Positions 9,218 to 18,161 of a stretch of 64,000 bases of DNA are shown one piece after another. The stretch spans positions 352,001 to 416,000 of the forward strand of contig CAWJRG010000009.1 of the NCBI GenBank assembly GCA_963845185.1, in the 5' to 3' direction. Origin of the DNA: an uncultured bacterium (GTDB taxonomy: Bacteria > Oederibacteriota > PGYV01 > CAWJRG01). Within the stretch, counting starts at the first letter, position 1. Each line of letters opens with the position of its first letter. Under the pieces are notes generated by a model. The model searched no databases. It was not told the DNA's origin and saw nothing but the letters and a program-made list of their open reading frames with translations. Both the position numbers and the translations under genes were made by a program.

Positions 9218-11012
9218 TTTTTTCTTTTTTGGGGAAACAAACAAACCTATCAACACACAATAGTGTACATTAACCCCTTTGCATCGCCCTTTATTTTTTG
9301 CTAAATAAGGTGTATAATTGAAATAGAAAGGAGGTTAAAAAGAATGGTTAGGCACGCTTTAAATCTTCCACTTATCTATAAGCCGAAAACCTCAAAAAAC
9401 ACCACCCCGTTACAGCATTTAAAAAAGCCACACATATTTATAATATCCCTGCTTTTTATTGTCAGCATCGCATTGCCTGTTTATGTTTACGGCGACGACG
9501 TCTGGGCCGATTTCTTCGGCACATCAAGCACATCAGGCACGTGGGATACAGGCACAAGATATAACCCAAATACAACAATGAAACCGCCTCTTGTATTATT
9601 ATGGCAGAGTTACGACTGGAGAGGAAATACAATTAATGTTAATCCAACATGGAATGGCGCAAGTATAGTAAATGGAGTTGTATATTATGGTGAAGGCTCT
9701 CAAATTGGTATTCCACCCGGCTATTTATGGGCATGGGACAGCGCAACCGGAATTACAAAAACAGGTTTTCCTTTACAAACTTTAAACGGCATAGGCGATA
9801 CGCCTTGTATATTAGGAGAATATATCGGAGCAGGAACACTTCCTATAGAGGGTACTGGTAATAATTATTTATGGGATAGTTTAAGTTTAAATATAATTTC
9901 TGGATTTCCCGTTACAGTAGCTGCAAATACGGAAATTGAAGGTAGCCCGATTATACAAAATAATAGAATATATTTTTGTAATGGTGATACTGTCGGCACT
10001 AATAATTATTATTTATATTGTTATGACACAACAACCGGGAATTTAATATATAAAAATCCATTGCCTGCGTATGGCTCGGATTCAACGCCGTTTATTTATC
10101 AGGGCAAAATAATAATAACAAACTGGAACACAGGGCTTCGTGTATATTGTTTCAATGAATCCGACGGAAGCACGGTGCCGGGATATCCTTTGCAATTATC
10201 CGCAAACGGCGGGACAAACGCCTCGCCGGTCGTATATAACAACCGGATATATATTGATTCCGGAGAGGCGTTTTGGGCAATTGACATAAACACGGCTACA
10301 GTGCCAGCGCCTTTTCCGCTGACAATCACAGGCGGCAATATGTCCTCAACAATCGCGGCAGGGAATGGAAAAGTATATTTTGGGACAGCAGGCGGTTATA
10401 TATATGGAAATTATTTATACGGAATTGACGCGACAACAGGAGCAAATATTGCGGGTTTTCCTGTTACGCTTAACGGCAGCGCCAACATAGACGGCCCGAT
10501 AACTCTTGCAAACGGCGTGGCATATTTTGGAACTGATGAAAATAAAGTTTATGCCGTTGACGCGAATAACGGAACAAATTTATGGAGTTATCAATTGCCT
10601 GCGGGCATTGGTTATAGTGGTATTCAGTACATAATGGCGTCGGTTGCAGAAAATAAACTGGCAGTAACTAGTGTAAGTGGAAACGGGGTTTTTGTATTTT
10701 GTATGCCAAGCCCGACAATAACGCCGACAATAACTGAAACAGCAACACCAACTATGACCGAAACCATAACGCCTACTATGACTTACACAAACACATCTAC
10801 TTTGACCGGTACTTATACAATAACAGCCACGATTACGCAAAGCCAGACAATCTCACAGACAACGACAGAAACAATTACGCCGACAATATCAATGACATCA
10901 ACAATAACTCAAACTCTGATAATATGTTAAGTGTTTATTAGAATGCACGTGGGTTCCAAATCTTTGTTAAAATAGTTATGCGAGTAACAAAATAACAAAG
11001 GAGGAACCACAC

Positions 11013-12047
11013 ATGCATTATGTCGGAGTTGATCTTCACAAAGAACAGTCATGGTTTTACGTTTCAGATCATGAAGGCAAAAGACTTATCAGTAAGAGTA
11101 TATCAAATTCGGAAGAGGAATTGAAACGGATATTTGAAATGATCCCAAAGCCATTCAAGTTGGGAGTAGAGGCCACAAGAAACTGGTACTTTTTTGTTGA
11201 TTTAGCCGAGCTTTATGCGGAAGAAGTCAATCTCGCGAATTCTTTCGAGCTCAAGGCTTTTGCAAAACGAAATAAGAAAACCGACAAGATAGACGCAAAA
11301 CTAATTTGCGATGTTCTGCGAATGGGTTTTCTTCCGAAAGTCAACATACCGCCAAAGCCCATAAGAGAAATACGTGAATTAATAAAATATAGAATGTCCC
11401 TTGTGTATGAGCGAACTTATAATATCAACAGGCTCAAAAATACGATGGGAAAACTAGGGCACGAATGTTGCAGCGATCTTACAAGATATAAACACTTAGA
11501 CAAAGTACAGACGGAGGAATTACCGGAGATATATAAAACTGTTATTAAAGGGCATCAAGAAAGGATTAGATTTTTAACTGAAAAAATTAATAGTATGAAA
11601 TTGTATCTCAAAGAAACGTTTGAAAATGACCCTGATATTAAGAACCTGATTACAATACCAGGCTTGAGTTATCTAAGCGCGGCAATAGTAAAGAGCGAGA
11701 TGATAGATGTAGCAAATTTTGCATCTTTTAACCGCCTTTGTTCCTTTGCCGGACTAGCTCCGCGAGTGAGCCGGAGTGCTAAAAAAGATATACACGGGCC
11801 TTTAAGCAGAAACAGGCGTAAATTACTTCAGTGGATATTGTTGGAAATAGTTCCTCATTATGTTAGAGCCTCAGAGGAAAAGAAAGCAAGATTCGATGAA
11901 ATAGTTAAAAGAAAAAGTTATAATACGGCAAAAGTTGTATTGGCCAGGGATCTTTTAAAGGTAATATATAATGTGCTACGAGATAAAAGAGAATATTATA
12001 GAAATACAATTCGGTCAACGGCGGGTGTCGCGCTCCACGGTGTCTGA
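11013..12047 (+). CDS. IS110-family DEDD recombinase/transposase
   Basis: VGVDLHK, GVEAT, KTDKIDA (DEDD RuvC domain); C-terminal FAGLAPRVSRSAK with the conserved Ser. Confidence 0.96.
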   Translation: MHYVGVDLHKEQSWFYVSDHEGKRLISKSISNSEEELKRIFEMIPKPFKLGVEATRNWYFFVDLAELYAEEVNLANSFELKAFAKRNKKTDKIDAKLICDVLRMGFLPKVNIPPKPIREIRELIKYRMSLVYERTYNINRLKNTMGKLGHECCSDLTRYKHLDKVQTEELPEIYKTVIKGHQERIRFLTEKINSMKLYLKETFENDPDIKNLITIPGLSYLSAAIVKSEMIDVANFASFNRLCSFAGLAPRVSRSAKKDIHGPLSRNRRKLLQWILLEIVPHYVRASEEKKARFDEIVKRKSYNTAKVVLARDLLKVIYNVLRDKREYYRNTIRSTAGVALHGV

Positions 12048-12190
12048 AGTGCGTTTTTTAACGCAGCTTCGTTAGGTCTGATTAGCGGGCATCCGCTGTC
12101 CAAGATTATCAAGCAGGCAGGCAATAGTCCTGCGCTGCCAATGGGTGACTGAAACCGGATTATTCCGGGTTTCTTGAGATAACAACGGAC
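12018..12190 (+). ncRNA. Bridge RNA/seekRNA of the IS1111-type element (target- and donor-binding loops); ends approximate
   Basis: Guides match the empty target (ACGGTGTC 12037-44, TCTGA 12077-81) and the circle junction (ATTATCA 12105-11, AATGGGTGA 12140-48); each pair flanks an inner hairpin. Confidence 0.8.
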
Positions 12191-12680
12191 GGCTGAATGA
12201 AATTACAGAGGATTAACAAGGATTGGAATTCATTAACGTGATACGTGTCTTTATATTTGACAAACACTTAAATGGGTGACACCGTCGCCCACATATACTA
12301 TAACGCCGACAAAGACTGAAGTTCCGGCATCTTTTTATTTTAGATTAATAGCAAACTCTCCAAACCCAGCGAATAACTATACTTATATTATTTATGAGAT
12401 AGGCATAGGAGCAGAAGTAAAAGTAATAATATACACAATAAGCGGTGAAAAAGTAACTACGCTTGAGCAAGAAGGCTCGCAGGGAAGAAACCGCCTTCGA
12501 TGGAACTGCAAAAATTTTGCAGGCCATGACGTAGCAAGCGGAGTATATATTTATAGAATTGAAGCAGTATCAGGCAGCAATAAAGCAAAAGCGTGGAGTA
12601 AACTGGCGGTTTTAAGGTGATAGAACTATCTTAAGTGGTGTTTTATATGGTGAAAACCATTTCTGTTTATTAAAATTAAC

Positions 12681-12815: not shown

Positions 12816-15800
12816 GTGAACACAAGAAACCAGGTCAATAAATTCAAAAATACAATAATATTATTATTTTTATTTATGATATTTCTTTCATTAGTCCAAA
12901 GCCTTTCAGCCGCGGCAGCTTATACGTGGACGAATGTAGTTGTTCCAGCCGGAGGATTTGTGGCTGGCGTGGATTACAGCCCGGTGCAGCAAGGGCTTAT
13001 TTATGCCAGAACCGATATGGGCGGTTTTTACCGCTGGGATAACACCAACAACGTCTGGATACCTTTAACCGATATGTATGGCCTAAGCCAGTATACCTAT
13101 CACGGCGGTGAAAGCATAGCACCTGACCCGGTCAATGCTAATAACGTTTATGCGGCGGCTGGAATGTATTTAACCAACGGTAATGGGGCTATACTCAGTT
13201 CAACTAACCAGGGCACTTCCTGGACAATCAATCCAATTGCAGTTCCCATGGGAGGCAATAATGACGGCAGGGAAGCAGGTGAACGCCTTGCTGTCGACCC
13301 GAACCTAAACAGCATACTCTATTTCGCTTCACGTAATAACGGTCTTTGGAAAAGCACCAATTCAGCTGCCACTTGGGCACAGGTCGCAAGTTTCCCGACA
13401 AACGGCGACGCCAATTATGGATTAACCTATGTAATTTTTCTTCCTGGCGGAAATCCTTCCTCCGGCACAGAAACTATTTTTGTCGGCGTGGATTCCATGA
13501 GCGCGGGAAACAGCAGCCTCTACCGTTCCACGAACGCCGGCAGTAGCTGGGCCGTGGTCCCAGGCGGGCCTACCAACATGATAACTCCACATGCTTCATT
13601 AGGAACAGACGGGACTTTGTGGATTGTATATGACAGCGGCGGATACGGTCCCAACAGCATTACCACGGGGCAAATTTGGAAATTAAACACCAGCACACTG
13701 GCTTGGACACAGGTAACTTTACCTGGACCGGCTGCAGGTAACGGGGGATATGGTGGGATATGCGTGGACCATCAAAACGCCCAACACGTAGTTGTCTCAA
13801 CCCTGGATTGGTGGGGTGGCCCAGACCATATCTACAGTACCACCAATGGCGGGACAAGCTGGTCAGTCATAGGGAACGCACAAAACAGCTGGGACGCTGC
13901 GCCTTATGCTGTTTACAACAACAATGGAGCATTATGGACAAGATTTTGCGGTACATATGACGGAGGTACAGGATGGCAGGGGGACATCAAGATAGACCCT
14001 TTTAATTCAAACAATGCTATATATACCACAGGAGGAGGCGTTTGGAGCAGTACCAGTATAGAGGCAGGGACGCAGCCCGCTGGTGTCACCTGGATTTTCA
14101 CCGACTATGGATTGGAGGAAACGGCTGTAACCGATATGATAACTTCAGCACCGGGTGGGGTTTTCTTCAGCGCAGTGGGGGATATAACCGGGATGCGGCA
14201 TCCAAACGTAACACAATCTCCTCCGCTTGGAATGTATTGTGACCCATCCATGAGTACCACAGACGGCATTGATTATGCTGAACTTAACACGAATTTTGTG
14301 GTTCGCGAGGGGCACAGTTTATCAAGCGGCACCACTTCTGCCGGCGGATATTCCACTGATAACGGGCAGACCTGGACAGCTTTTGGCTCAAACCCGAACG
14401 GTTATTCTACAAGCGGCGGAAACGGGCAAATATCAGTAAATGCCAACGGTACTGTGATTCTTTGGGCGCTGCCTTCCAGCACAGCAGTATATTCTTCAAA
14501 CAACGGCACGACCTGGAATAATACATCAGGACTCCCTAACGGAGCTCAAATATGTTCGGACAGGGCAAATAATACTATATTTTATGGTATTTCAGGCACA
14601 ACACTTTATGTCAGTACAAACAGCGGGGCCAGCTTTTCCAGCGCGGGTACATATTCAGGCAGCATATCATGGGCTAACAGGCCAAGGGCTGTTTTTGGCA
14701 TAGCAGGTGAAGTCTGGGTTCCGACAGGCAGTGGCCTCTATCGGTTTACTAATGTAGGTTTGGGAACTGTGGCAACCACGCAGATTGCAAATGTGTCAAG
14801 CGCAGTGGCTGTAGGATTTGGCAAGGCGGCTTCAGGACAAACACATCCAGCGGTTTACCTGGCTGGGACTTTGAGCGGAACCTATGGCTTTTTCCGTTGC
14901 GATGACGGAGTCGGTACCACCTGGACCCAAATAAACGACGCTAATCACCAGTTCGGCGCGGCTGAATTCGCAGCAGGGGACGAAACGGTTTACGGCCGCA
15001 TGTATGTAGGTACCAATGGAAGGGGCATTCTTTATGGCGACATTTCTACTTCAGGTACTTCTACTGTAACACCGGCAATAACTTTAACTTATACAAGTAC
15101 AGCTACGCCAAATCCGACGAGAACTTTTACACCAACATATTCATACACATTGACTTCAACAAGGACGTCAAGCCCGACATATACCAGCACCCAGCAGATG
15201 ACACCGACTTCGACAGGAACAGCAACCGCAACTGTTACGAACACATCTTCATACACTTCAACTTCTACACGAACAGCAACGCAGACCTCAACGCTATCGC
15301 GGACATCTACCTTTACTCCAACAAATACGCCGACATATACAATTACAATAACATCAACAAGCACGCAACAGAATACGGTTACTTTAACAGAAACAAGGAC
15401 AAATACCGGCACTTATACAGCGACAGGGACTAATACCCCGGTACCCACAGGAACAAATACTGTAACACCTTCTTTAACGGCAACAAGAACAAACACGGTA
15501 ACATCTACCTTGACTGCGACTTCTACATCAACATATACAGTAACTCTGACATGGACAAACACCTTACAGAATACTGAAACTTTAACGGCTACAGGGACAA
15601 ATACAACATTGTCAACGGCAACAAGGACAAATACAAGCACATATACTGCGACAGAAACAAATACAGCAACACAGACATCAACAGCAACACGGACAAACAC
15701 TGCAACGACGACATTTACTGCGACAGCTACTCCAACATACACAATTACTCTGACATGGACAAGCACGTCACAAAACACAGTAACTTTAACTTCAACAGGA

Positions 15801-18161
15801 ACAAATACTGCAACACCTTCCTTAACGGCAACACGAACAAATACGGTAACGTCGACTTTGACTGCTACACCTACGCCAACATATACAGTTACATTAACAT
15901 GGACAAACACGTTGCAGAACACGGCAACTTTAACGGCGACACGTACAAATACATCAACGCTGACATTCACTGAGACAATTACGCCAACATATACAGTTAC
16001 ATTAACATGGACAAACACGTTGCAGAACACAGCAACTTTAACGGCGACACGTACAAATACATCAACGCTGACATTCACTGAGACAGTTACACCAACATAT
16101 ACAGTTACATTAACTTGGACAAATACACCACAGAACACGGCAACTTTATCAACGACATCTACTCTTACGGCGACAAGGACAAATACTGCGACGAATACAC
16201 CCACATATTCTGCTACAGCGACATGGACACTTACATTTACAACTACTTTTACGGTGACAGGAACATTCACGGAGACATTAACTTTAACAAGAACGATAAC
16301 ATCAACGCTAACTAATTCACCTGTGGTATCAGAAACACCAACTTATACAGCAACGATTTTTACCCCGACAATTACGCCAACGTCCACAATATCACCGACA
16401 ATTACATTGACAGATACAGCATCGCCTACTGGGACACCAACTTTTACTGCGACAAGGACAAACACAGGCACAAATACGCCGACTTATACAGTAACTTTGA
16501 CATGGACAAACACATCACAGAACACAGTAACATTTACAGCTACGGGAACAAATACGACAAATCCTACAGGTACAAGTACAGGGACACCTACACTTACAGT
16601 TACACGGACAACTACAGTTACAAATACGCCGATAAACACACCTTCATATACAGTAACATTGACTTATACATTGACAGTTACATCAACATTTACCAATTCA
16701 CCGGTGGTATCACCTACGCCGACATTTACTAATATAATATTCACATGGACAATTACGCAGACTTCTACCTCATCGCCAACAATCACATTGACAAATACAC
16801 CATTACCAACAGGTACAGATACGGAGACGGTTACGTTCACTGCGACAAAAACAGACTCCGCAACCACAACCTTCACTGTTACACCTACGCCAACATATAC
16901 AGTTACATTAACATGGACAAGTACGTTGCAGAATACTGCCACTTTAACAGCAACAGGAACAAATATAGCGTCGCCTACAGTTACATATACAAATACCTGC
17001 GATTGTACGGGCACAGAAACAGTGACACCTACATTTACGTTTGTAGCGACAAGGACAAACACCGGAACATCGACAGTGACGAATACGTCCACAAATACAC
17101 CTTCGTTTACAGAAACATTGACATCCACAACAACAATTACATTAACATTAACTAATACTGAGGTTGTGTCAGAAACACCGACTTATACAGCGACAATTTT
17201 TACGCCGACAATTTCACCGACGTCTACCGTAACACCAACAATAACATTGACAGATACACCATCACTAACAGACACGGTAACGTCGACTGCAACAGAAACA
17301 GAGACAAGGACAAATACATTATTACCTACACTTACAAATACGCCAGAGAATACCGCAACAAGCACAGTGACGCCTACTGTAGGAGCAAACCTTGTAGCGG
17401 ATATTACTATTTCACAGGGGAGTGCAATGATAGGGCAGGATATAACCGTAATAATGCAGGTAGTAAATACAGGGACAAATGGCGTGAATAATTTACAGCC
17501 TTCAGCGCTGGCTCAAACAGGCGGTGGAACAGCTATCCTTATAAGCGGGCCCATGCCTGCAAGCACTGCAATAGTCTCAGATTCATCAGGATCATTTACG
17601 TGGGTATATACAGTGACTTCCGTGGCAGGAAATATAGCATTCAGCGGGTCGGCAAGCGGCACAGACGCGATAAACGGCACAATAGTATCAACTGCGATAG
17701 TGACCAGCAATCCATTAATATGCGTTACAGCCACGGCAACAATAGCAAATTCAATTACAATTACCGTAACGCCGACATATACAATAACGCCTAGTATTAC
17801 GACAACAAATCCAGTTGCGACAGCCAGCTTTACACCGACAAACCAGGTTCCTGTTTTCACGGCTACAGCCACATTTGTAATTACTACACAGCCGCCAGGG
17901 CCGCCAAGGATATATCCAAACCCAGTAAAAGACAGGTTTAGATATGTATTTACCCTGACGGAAGATGCAGATATAGAAATAACTATATATACAGCGTCAT
18001 ACAGGCTGATAGCAAAATTTGATCAGTGGCAGAGCGCAGGATTAAATACTATTATAATCGGCGTACAAGGCTTGGCAAACGGTACATATTTTATCGTATA
18101 CAAGCAAAAAGGTCAGACAACAAATACAAAGAGAATTGATAAATTTATCATTTTAAAATAA
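12816..18161 (+). CDS. Secreted GH74 xyloglucanase/endoglucanase + ~780-aa Thr-rich tract + Ig-like domain + T9SS type-A-like C-terminal domain
   Basis: Signal peptide; YARTDMGG, GERLAVDP, GDITG, YVGTNGRGI (GH74); C-terminal IYPNP...IYTASYRLI...LANGTYFI...KFIILK. Confidence 0.9.
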   Translation: MNTRNQVNKFKNTIILLFLFMIFLSLVQSLSAAAAYTWTNVVVPAGGFVAGVDYSPVQQGLIYARTDMGGFYRWDNTNNVWIPLTDMYGLSQYTYHGGESIAPDPVNANNVYAAAGMYLTNGNGAILSSTNQGTSWTINPIAVPMGGNNDGREAGERLAVDPNLNSILYFASRNNGLWKSTNSAATWAQVASFPTNGDANYGLTYVIFLPGGNPSSGTETIFVGVDSMSAGNSSLYRSTNAGSSWAVVPGGPTNMITPHASLGTDGTLWIVYDSGGYGPNSITTGQIWKLNTSTLAWTQVTLPGPAAGNGGYGGICVDHQNAQHVVVSTLDWWGGPDHIYSTTNGGTSWSVIGNAQNSWDAAPYAVYNNNGALWTRFCGTYDGGTGWQGDIKIDPFNSNNAIYTTGGGVWSSTSIEAGTQPAGVTWIFTDYGLEETAVTDMITSAPGGVFFSAVGDITGMRHPNVTQSPPLGMYCDPSMSTTDGIDYAELNTNFVVREGHSLSSGTTSAGGYSTDNGQTWTAFGSNPNGYSTSGGNGQISVNANGTVILWALPSSTAVYSSNNGTTWNNTSGLPNGAQICSDRANNTIFYGISGTTLYVSTNSGASFSSAGTYSGSISWANRPRAVFGIAGEVWVPTGSGLYRFTNVGLGTVATTQIANVSSAVAVGFGKAASGQTHPAVYLAGTLSGTYGFFRCDDGVGTTWTQINDANHQFGAAEFAAGDETVYGRMYVGTNGRGILYGDISTSGTSTVTPAITLTYTSTATPNPTRTFTPTYSYTLTSTRTSSPTYTSTQQMTPTSTGTATATVTNTSSYTSTSTRTATQTSTLSRTSTFTPTNTPTYTITITSTSTQQNTVTLTETRTNTGTYTATGTNTPVPTGTNTVTPSLTATRTNTVTSTLTATSTSTYTVTLTWTNTLQNTETLTATGTNTTLSTATRTNTSTYTATETNTATQTSTATRTNTATTTFTATATPTYTITLTWTSTSQNTVTLTSTGTNTATPSLTATRTNTVTSTLTATPTPTYTVTLTWTNTLQNTATLTATRTNTSTLTFTETITPTYTVTLTWTNTLQNTATLTATRTNTSTLTFTETVTPTYTVTLTWTNTPQNTATLSTTSTLTATRTNTATNTPTYSATATWTLTFTTTFTVTGTFTETLTLTRTITSTLTNSPVVSETPTYTATIFTPTITPTSTISPTITLTDTASPTGTPTFTATRTNTGTNTPTYTVTLTWTNTSQNTVTFTATGTNTTNPTGTSTGTPTLTVTRTTTVTNTPINTPSYTVTLTYTLTVTSTFTNSPVVSPTPTFTNIIFTWTITQTSTSSPTITLTNTPLPTGTDTETVTFTATKTDSATTTFTVTPTPTYTVTLTWTSTLQNTATLTATGTNIASPTVTYTNTCDCTGTETVTPTFTFVATRTNTGTSTVTNTSTNTPSFTETLTSTTTITLTLTNTEVVSETPTYTATIFTPTISPTSTVTPTITLTDTPSLTDTVTSTATETETRTNTLLPTLTNTPENTATSTVTPTVGANLVADITISQGSAMIGQDITVIMQVVNTGTNGVNNLQPSALAQTGGGTAILISGPMPASTAIVSDSSGSFTWVYTVTSVAGNIAFSGSASGTDAINGTIVSTAIVTSNPLICVTATATIANSITITVTPTYTITPSITTTNPVATASFTPTNQVPVFTATATFVITTQPPGPPRIYPNPVKDRFRYVFTLTEDADIEITIYTASYRLIAKFDQWQSAGLNTIIIGVQGLANGTYFIVYKQKGQTTNTKRIDKFIILK
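15873..16150 (+). repeat. 108-bp (36-aa) near-identical tandem repeat inside the GH74 Thr tract
   Basis: TPTYTVTLTWTNTLQNTATLTATRTNTSTLTFTET(I/V) at 15873 and 15981, partial third copy at 16089. Confidence 0.85.
17162..18161 (+). repeat. ~1-kb direct repeat copy 1 (end of Thr tract, Ig domain, C-terminal domain); copy 2 at 22774-23773
   Basis: Colinear, highly similar DNA at constant 5612-bp offset, beginning GGTTGTGTCAGAAACACCGACTTATACAGCG. Confidence 0.9.

Follow-up and report, generated by a model that had tools for sequence, protein, structure and literature searches.

The window analyzed here is a 64,000-nucleotide (nt) stretch from the genome of an uncultured bacterium of the Oederibacteriota (contig CAWJRG010000009.1, positions 352,001 to 416,000, forward strand), in which a gene encoding a beta-propeller protein is interrupted by an insertion sequence (IS) carrying a recombinase gene and, at the 3' end of that gene, a structured RNA domain with four short guides (Table 1). 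This element is very probably an intact IS1111-type member of the IS110 family, whose recombinase is guided by an RNA from its own 3' region. An initial annotation, made from the sequence of the window, had proposed a guide RNA of the IS110/IS1111 kind at this place, and the proposal is supported by the family of the recombinase, the IS1111 traits of the element, the covariation within the RNA, and the way in which the guides track the flanking DNA in related insertions.

Insertion site and ends of the element

The left junction reads AAACTC-TGA/TAATAT (region 10911-10925) and the right junction AATGGG-TGA/CACCGT (region 12271-12285). When the element was excised by script, the open reading frames (ORFs) at 9344-10930 and 12276-12620 fused in frame to encode one 638-amino-acid (aa) protein, in which a PQQ-type beta-propeller is followed by a Thr-rich linker and then by a type IX secretion sorting tail; the insertion is clean, and removal of the element restores the host frame. 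Elsewhere in the genome, six paralogous C-terminal regions of the interrupted gene were found (81 to 85% identity), and the equivalent place in four of these six uninterrupted paralogues reads ...AAAC[AC]TTGA/C[AG]C..., with a single TGA. Given the restored frame and these four paralogues, the empty target AAACTC-TGA-CACCGT of the initial annotation is a well-founded inference. The genome holds one full copy of the element and, besides, one 149-bp fragment of its left end. Just downstream of the interrupted gene, a 1781-aa ORF (12816-18161) has very long Thr/Ser/Pro-rich repeated linkers that resemble the linker of the interrupted gene.

Subterminal inverted repeats of 7 to 17 bp define the IS1111 group with respect to the IS110 group (PMC11208160), and the traits that separate the two groups (PMC11208160; PMC11187229) are present here, i.e., a 10/10 subterminal repeat, a short left and a long right end, and a promoter that arises only by joining of the ends; the RNA downstream of the recombinase gene is a further IS1111 trait. 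Subterminal repeats at the equal offset score 7 to 10 of 10 in 46 loci, and their sequences vary among lineages. Across the joined ends lies a promoter composed of TTGACA, a 17-nt spacer, and TAATAT, and the donor joint, with the right end abutting the left end, reads AATGGGTGATAATAT, in which AATGGGTGA runs into TAATAT.

Table 1. Coordinates of the insertion sequence, its guide RNA, and the interrupted host gene in the window
Feature	Position	Strand	Remarks
Interrupted host gene, 5' part (beta-propeller, then Thr-rich linker)	9344-10919	+	Pfam PQQ_2, 9.8e-14
Core TGA at left junction (left target flank AAACTC, then TGA)	10917-10919	+	Identical TGA ends the right end (12277-12279)
Whole insertion sequence	10920-12279	+	1360 bp by the junction reading; count includes one copy of the common TGA, at the right end
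Left end	10920-11012		93 nt
TAATAT, -10 half of circle-junction promoter	10920-10925	+	Promoter forms only with ends joined in a circle
Left subterminal inverted repeat TTAAGTGTTT	10927-10936	+	10/10 complementary to 12262-12271
Recombinase (transposase) gene	11013-12047	+	344 aa; Shine-Dalgarno AAGGAGG at 10998-11004; stop codon 12045-12047
Whole guide-RNA domain (bridge RNA or long seekRNA)	12009-12198	+	~190 nt; extent predicted from minimum free energy fold and cognate-flank pairing
P1, closing stem	12009-12016 with 12191-12198	+
Target-binding hairpin	12021-12096	+	76 nt; P2, internal loop with both target guides, and P3; corresponds to short seekRNA
P2, outer stem of target hairpin	12021-12034 with 12084-12096	+
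Right target guide ACGGTGTC	12037-12044	+	8/8 match to right flank
P3, inner stem of target hairpin	12046-12055 with 12060-12070	+
Right end	12048-12279		232 nt
Left target guide AGGTCTGA	12074-12081	+	8 nt; 5/8 against own flank, 8/8 against flank of truncated copy
Right donor guide ATTATCA	12105-12111	+	Reverse complement of TGA-TAAT (core plus left end of element)
P4 stem-loop, between both donor guides	12113-12138 (12113-12121 with 12129-12138)	+	9/9 pairs compensatory; 96.8% of cells paired
Left donor guide AATGGGTGA	12140-12148	+	Identical to right end 12271-12279 (direct repeat D9)
P5 stem-loop	12151-12173 (12151-12159 with 12164-12173)	+	8/9 pairs compensatory; 98.2% of cells paired
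Single-stranded conserved GATA	12178-12181	+	Can pair with TATC 12107-12110 within right donor guide (RNAalifold prediction)
TTGACA, -35 half of circle-junction promoter	12257-12262	+
Right subterminal inverted repeat AAACACTTAA	12262-12271	+	Partner of 10927-10936 (pair I10)
Interrupted host gene, 3' part (type IX secretion sorting tail)	12280-12620	+	Pfam Por_Secre_tail, 2.7e-06, 28 bits against a cut-off of 27

The recombinase

Both domains expected of an IS110-family recombinase scored above their Pfam cut-offs, namely the N-terminal RuvC-like DEDD domain (DEDD_Tnp_IS110, PF01548, 5.6e-23, residues 4-145) and the C-terminal Tnp domain (Transposase_20, PF02371, 2.7e-13, residues 211-292), and the NCBIfam equivalog NF033542 ("IS110 family RNA-guided transposase") matched with 195.4 bits against a cut-off of 140. 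Residues D7, E53, D91, D94, and S255 do not vary in 11 relatives and, in an alignment with the ISCro4 protein, whose structure is solved (E 2.2e-07), fall on its catalytic positions, the roles of these residues being as described for IS621 (PMC11208158); the IS621 protein matches as well (E 1.8e-06). The length of 344 aa falls in the IS1111 range of 330 to 350 aa. The motif GLAPRVSRSA keeps the G, L, P, and S of the IS1111 motif GL-P----S(t)G and ends in A; that last residue is G in 4 of the 11 aligned relatives, and an occasional TA at the motif end is mentioned in the text on the IS1111 group (PMC11187229). A search of 72,556 plasmid records with this protein returned 1162 matches, all below 60% identity and the best at ~30% (at most ~31%); among these matching records no named close relative was found, and the names given were the generic "IS110 family transposase."

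Structure of the guide RNA

The region 12010-12200 folds at -75.3 kcal/mol, below all 200 shuffles (z -3.45). In the fold, a closing stem surrounds the target-binding hairpin and a multiloop, in the joints of which both donor guides are placed. The four motifs ACGGTGTC, TCTGA (12077-12081), ATTATCA, and AATGGGTGA all lie where the initial annotation had put them, the stems that it drew agree with the covariation-supported helices P2, P3, and P4, and the order that it described, with the right guide 5' of the left guide in both loops, holds; nearly all of its details proved right. For the given 8-, 9-, 7-, and 5-mers, we calculated chances of ~0.0025, 0.0006, 0.01, and 0.17, respectively, of occurring in a random 173-nt stretch.

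Relatives were gathered by scanning genome contigs (24 loci, 15 of them 52 to 83% identical in protein) and metagenome contigs (98 found, 80 kept). In an alignment of 13 sequences, four helices with 41 pairs have 97.5% of cells paired, and 26 pairs are changed on both sides; none of 500 shuffles reached the observed value, and structures slid by 1 to 3 columns pair at 36 to 48%. A covariance model, R1, was built from 12 sequences. In 84 of 100 sources, it gave a full-length match directly 3' of the recombinase gene; on the window's element, the match lies at 12019-12185 and scores 169.9 bits, in the upper range of the family. No match was obtained in three further IS110-family loci of this genome (L004, L008, and L009) or in two distant relatives (L027 and L031). 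Over 71 distinct sequences, 40 pairs are 97.8% paired (slid controls, 35 to 47%) and 37 of the 40 show compensatory change, in an alignment that was fitted to the covariance model and leans toward it. In the target-binding hairpin, helices 1 and 2 have 98.9% and 96.7% of cells paired, with 12/13 and 8/9 pairs compensatory, respectively. The closing stem P1 lies outside the model; the cognate 5' and 3' flanks of 64 elements pair at -11.4 kcal/mol, against -8.4 kcal/mol for mixed flanks (0/2000 permutations).

The conserved GATA could close a further helix with 12107-12110 or self-block the donor site, as suggested by a single compensatory case (L051, TATT/AATA); its C-G pair is retained in 65 of 67 rows, and three U-G cases occur. 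The Rfam scan of 10800-12400 at E<=10 gave two chance matches (E 3.9 and 7.8), both elsewhere in the gene, and Rfam 15 contains no matching family. In one relative (L018:1307-1507), an additional ~35-nt insert sits in the P5 loop, so this loop tolerates cargo.

The RNA starts inside the recombinase coding region and the stop codon stands at the opening of the inner stem P3. Loop 1 had been said to overlap the last ~10 codons; the RNA overlaps 9 codons, or 13 when P1 is counted. In 54 of 70 distinct loci, a TGA directly after the right target guide closes the recombinase frame, and this guide forms the last three codons of the gene. The protein then ends in AL-x-G-V, where the residue x, which varies with the guide, is S, C, H, L, Y, I, N, A, Q, T, V, or M. 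In the text of PMC11187229, "stop codon" does not occur and "overlap" occurs once, in another sense; the arrangement may already appear in the figures or supplements of Siddiquee et al. or Durrant et al.

Guides follow the flanking DNA

Guide columns were taken from the model alignment, left ends were located by the motif TGA-TAnTAT, and right ends by the rule of a -35 box plus 17 nt, refined by the subterminal repeat. Since the -35 rule alone mis-called three loci (L049, L018, and L101), the right end was chosen by the subterminal repeat where this scored >=7/10, and otherwise as the first candidate; leftover mis-calls weaken the signal and do not create it. The agreement of each guide with its own DNA was then compared with that in 20000 permutations in which flanks were shuffled among loci.

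All four guides were found to co-vary with the DNA of their own element. The left target guide matches the 5 nt before TGA at 4.34/5 in cognate pairings, against 2.65 in others (n=70, 0/20000, z 14.5), and by position the signal covers exactly the five bases before TGA, with none beyond. The right target guide, compared with the 4, 6, and 8 nt after GA (n=65), gave 0/20000 at each length, with z values of 7.2, 4.9, and 4.7; at 6 nt, cognate pairings score 4.22/6 and other pairings 3.81, and the signal is strongest at +0, +2, and +5 after G. When the set was collapsed to 61 distinct guide pairs, both target tests stayed at 0/20000. For the donor guides, cognate scores were 5.97/8 against 5.46 for the left guide and the right end (n=65, 0/20000, z 8.0), and 5.20/7 against 5.09 for the right guide and the left end (n=70, 8/20000, z 4.1). 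The right-end variants GCTGA, GATGA, GAGTGA, AAGTGA, and TTGGTGA are mirrored in the left donor guide. In L016 and L022, the left end has changed to TGATACT and the right donor guide to AGTATCA, while the possible RNA partner GATAAT is unchanged; thus, the right donor guide follows the DNA end and not this RNA partner.

Two relatives, L039 and L043, are near-identical to each other, each ~81% identical to the window's protein, and differ in both target guides. In L039, the left guide is GGGTCTGA and the left flank GGGGTCTGA, with a right guide (reverse complement) of GACCCCATG and a right flank of GACCCCAG; in L043, the corresponding sequences are GGCTCTGA, AGGCTCTGA, GACACCATG, and GACACCTA. 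The pair is a case of natural retargeting, the flanks differing in the way in which the guides differ.

Within the genome of the window, the left flank of the truncated copy (...CAAGGTCTGA/TAATATG) matches all eight positions of the left target guide. The full copy matches that guide at TCTGA only, i.e., at two guide bases plus the three-base core, and is a half-matched insertion (right half 5/5, left half 3/5). Hence, the statement that all four guides match the element's own target and donor is weakest for the left target guide, which is 8 nt long and matches its own flank at 5. Sites at which the guides failed to match had been named as what would speak against the reading; the truncated copy matches 8/8, and the flanks follow their own guides in 65 to 70 insertions. 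Both flanks were available for 59 insertions; of these, 38 match at least 4/5 in each half, 12 in the left half alone, 8 in the right half alone, and 1 in neither half, a pattern that echoes the "half-match" insertions reported for IS621 (bioRxiv 10.64898/2026.08.31.748434). A second TCTGA, at 12043-12047, was considered as another left-target match and rejected, as its equivalent stays GTCTGA where the left flank is GTGTGA or ACTTGA.

Predicted specificity and its sites in the genome

The programmed site is predicted as AGGTC-TGA-CACCG(T), and a target built to the guides would read AGGTCTGACACCGT. The initial annotation had placed the specificity near TCTGACACCGT, which is revised here. Its core was GA/TGA; TG, GA, and TGA are all candidates. 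TGA is spanned by the left guides, and GA by the right target guide. With the right junction of L052 and L071 reading TGG, TG is all that both junctions share, and the core may be TG in place of GA or TGA.

The truncated copy (C9:610057-610205 of the genome, minus strand; L002/L036) lies outside the window in a ~100-nt leader, in which an upstream arm (CAGACCTTGCTTGTTGC) is able to pair with the downstream gene at codons 11-16, enclosing the ribosome-binding site and start codon of that gene. Three related leaders are found on C9 at ~14.1 kb, 14.77 kb, and 609.5 kb, and the leader with the truncated copy has four related loci only. The intact leader near 14.0 kb reads CAAGGGGTGA/CACCGTC, in which the right half is that predicted by the 5' guide of the element. 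The programmed site may thus be this leader. An Rfam scan of two leader loci found nothing relevant. A repeated target of the kind of a repetitive extragenic palindromic (REP) element was also considered for this genome and rejected on the counts of perfect and near-perfect sites given below and on the small number of loci related to the leader.

A proposed model of the transposition cycle

We propose a model of the cycle by analogy with ISEc11 and IS621. The element would leave as a circle in which its right and left ends abut (...AATGGG-TGA-TAATAT...), thus creating the joint promoter, from which the recombinase gene and the RNA would be expressed on one transcript, as proposed for IS1111 elements (PMC11187229). 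The RNA would then fold into the closing stem, the target hairpin, and the multiloop. In the target hairpin, ACGGUGUC would base-pair to the right of the target, on the top strand, and AGGUCUGA to the left of it, on the bottom strand, and in the multiloop, AUUAUCA and AAUGGGUGA would likewise read the two sides of the circle joint. Finally, the recombinase would exchange strands at the common core (TG/TGA) through its DEDD and Ser active sites, as described for such enzymes (PMC11208158), without duplication. The anatomy, the RNA structure, and the co-variation of the four guides with flanks and ends are direct observations on this element and its relatives; its transcription, processing, protein binding, circle formation, and chemistry are taken over from the analogy.

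A more elaborate variant of this model could be envisaged, in which bridge recombination has a built-in gating. Guide and gene being interlocked, each retargeting event would rewrite the C-terminus of the recombinase; the pairing of GATA with the right donor guide may hold the donor site closed until the circle joint displaces GATA; and the base after TG in the two left guides may be a handshake position reading the partner DNA after strand exchange, as L052 suggests. We consider this combination unlikely, and offer it as a speculation.

Evidence against the guided reading and alternative explanations

Several observations weigh against a guide RNA acting as proposed. (i) In this genome, the element is single-copy, a perfect programmed site is absent (0 found), and sites with <=2 mismatches number 6 against ~14 expected by our own arithmetic. 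(ii) The left flank of the window copy matches only 3/5 of the specific guide bases. (iii) The loci of the permutation tests are related to one another, so that the figures overstate their independence. (iv) With the first 15 insertions, the right-guide test was weak (416/20000 at 6 nt and 2240/20000 at 8 nt), and its background is high because most right flanks in the family begin with GACCCC, non-cognate matches already reaching 3.8/6. (v) The right donor guide varies little and mismatches the left end in several lineages (L019, L055, and L105), and the left donor guide of L039 and L043 ends in TGG, not TGA. (vi) As a promoter for the RNA, one upstream candidate was found (11896-11924), which is at the level of chance, as the scan gave 4 sites against 4.9 expected.

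The first of these points bears on an alternative that concedes the kind of system and takes the element to be inactive in this genome now, a stranded single copy without its programmed site. With one full and one truncated copy and near-matches that are not enriched, such a state is a real possibility, if clearly the less probable one. R1 also finds one RNA in this genome and, among 60 relative genomes searched, has matches in only one (G014, 10 matches), a patchy distribution that is as expected for a mobile element. Against inactivity, the ORF is intact with all catalytic residues present, the RNA scores in the upper range of its family, and the two ends are preserved intact, as are the subterminal repeats and the two halves of the promoter.

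A second alternative would confine the guide function to the target hairpin, as in the short ISEc11 seekRNA, the donor guides being internal copies of the ends that are read as DNA or serve in end recognition. Siddiquee et al. (PMC11187229) report that ISEc11 can move with the short seekRNA of 70 to 100 nt, which contains the target matches, and they leave open what the long form does. Moreover, the donor guides differ little between cognate and non-cognate pairings, and a protein reading both copies would make them co-vary too. However, the donor motifs lie in single-stranded joints between P2, P4, and P5, each of which shows 8 to 12 compensatory pairs, which argues that the donor part has been selected as RNA. 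Relative to the joint, one motif is sense and the other antisense, an arrangement also seen in the target loop and in IS621 (PMC11208160), and donor-binding nucleotides are described in a multiloop in many IS1111 orthologues (Durrant et al., PMC11208160). Taken with these features, a role for the target hairpin alone seems quite improbable. That the recombinase mRNA simply ends here in an ordinary structured 3' untranslated region or a terminator with coincidental matches, as P5 being flagged terminator-like in a scan and the missing Rfam family might suggest, is hardly credible, since P5 is followed by a poor T tract that is not conserved as such, the four motifs of 5 to 9 nt stand in the expected loops and orientations and co-vary with the DNA of their own element in a way that the permutation tests already disfavor as chance, and near-identical elements with different guides occupy correspondingly different sites.

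Relation to known RNA-guided insertion sequences

Guided recombination, which we retain as the preferred reading, has been established experimentally with right-end RNAs for ISEc11, ISPa11, ISKpn4, and ISPst6 (Siddiquee et al. 2024, PMC11187229). The window's element resembles these IS1111 seekRNA elements in its DEDD recombinase (344 aa here, 330 to 350 aa there), its subterminal inverted repeats, the RNA downstream of the recombinase gene, the lack of a target duplication, two target matches that overlap at the insertion point, a circle-joint promoter, and the sizes of a long RNA form (168 to 190 nt here, 145 to 170 nt there) and a short target hairpin (76 nt here, 70 to 100 nt there). The guide that pairs with the top strand comes first in IS1111 seekRNAs (Siddiquee et al., PMC11187229), and ACGGTGTC, the top-strand guide, likewise lies 5' of AGGTCTGA, the bottom-strand guide. 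In contrast, the recombinase motif ends in S-A, where theirs ends in S/T-G; the RNA starts in the coding region, with the right target guide as the last three codons; the hosts of the subfamily are uncultured lineages; and among the IS110-family genes on the plasmid records searched, none exceeds ~31% identity to the protein. Likeness to and difference from ISEc11 were drawn from its published description.

With IS621 and ISCro4, as described by Durrant et al. (2024, PMC11208160) and Hiraizumi et al. (2024, PMC11208158), the element shares two binding modules, a left guide taken from the bottom strand and a right guide from the top strand, guides that all run into a short common core, and aligned catalytic DEDD and Ser residues. 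It differs in that the RNA lies in the right end and not in the left end, the guides run right-then-left in both modules, the donor guides are in a multiloop rather than in a simple internal loop, the core is TG/TGA rather than CT, and long subterminal repeats are present; its protein is marginally similar in sequence to the two whose structures are solved (E 2e-07 and 2e-06). The predicted bridge RNAs of ISCARN28, ISAzs32, and ISPa11 (Durrant et al. 2024, Fig. 6 and Extended Data Fig. 10) are alike in being right-end RNAs with donor nucleotides in a multiloop and base-pairing patterns of 8 to 14 nt; by their published text and legends, on which the comparison is based, they possibly share a subfamily with the window's element.

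To call the locus a complete new orthologue, as the initial annotation did, is fair for the element, but the kind is known, as covariance models predicted bridge RNAs in 93.0% of ISfinder IS1111 elements (Durrant et al. 2024, PMC11208160). The element is clearly a new instance of those RNA-guided insertion sequences that were described in 2024, and not a new kind of system; together with its relatives, it forms what appears, against catalogued elements as given in the published text, to be a new, well-populated subfamily of that kind. For this subfamily of RNA-guided recombinases from uncultured bacteria, the RNA structure is mapped, with guides of 8 nt and ~7 to 8 nt, core included. Its ~60 distinct guide pairs with their insertion sites represent a natural data set that displays retargeting and half-matched insertion outside the laboratory, and the subfamily is a candidate for orthologue screens seeking better bridge editors. 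The overlap of the right target guide with the last codons is a small curiosity and leaves the current picture of how these elements work unchanged.

Additional observations

A second, unrelated IS110-family element is present in the genome in four copies with identical scores (L004 to L007, at C1:322483-323481, C5:335693-336691, C9:329810-330808, and C10:445301-446299); its protein, from a 355-aa frame, is 28% identical to the window's recombinase, and it has no R1 match. Weak or partial R1 matches (29 to 80 bits) occur away from any full recombinase match at L012:3200-3338 (equal to L038:2900-3038) and on contigs C14, C88, C10, and C91 of G014, and one of them lies ~440 nt past the right end of a full element; these may be decayed copies or stand-alone guide RNAs. 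Finally, the right flank of L013, from position 2772, places that insertion directly before what looks by eye like a tRNA gene (ending ...GGTTCGACTCCC).

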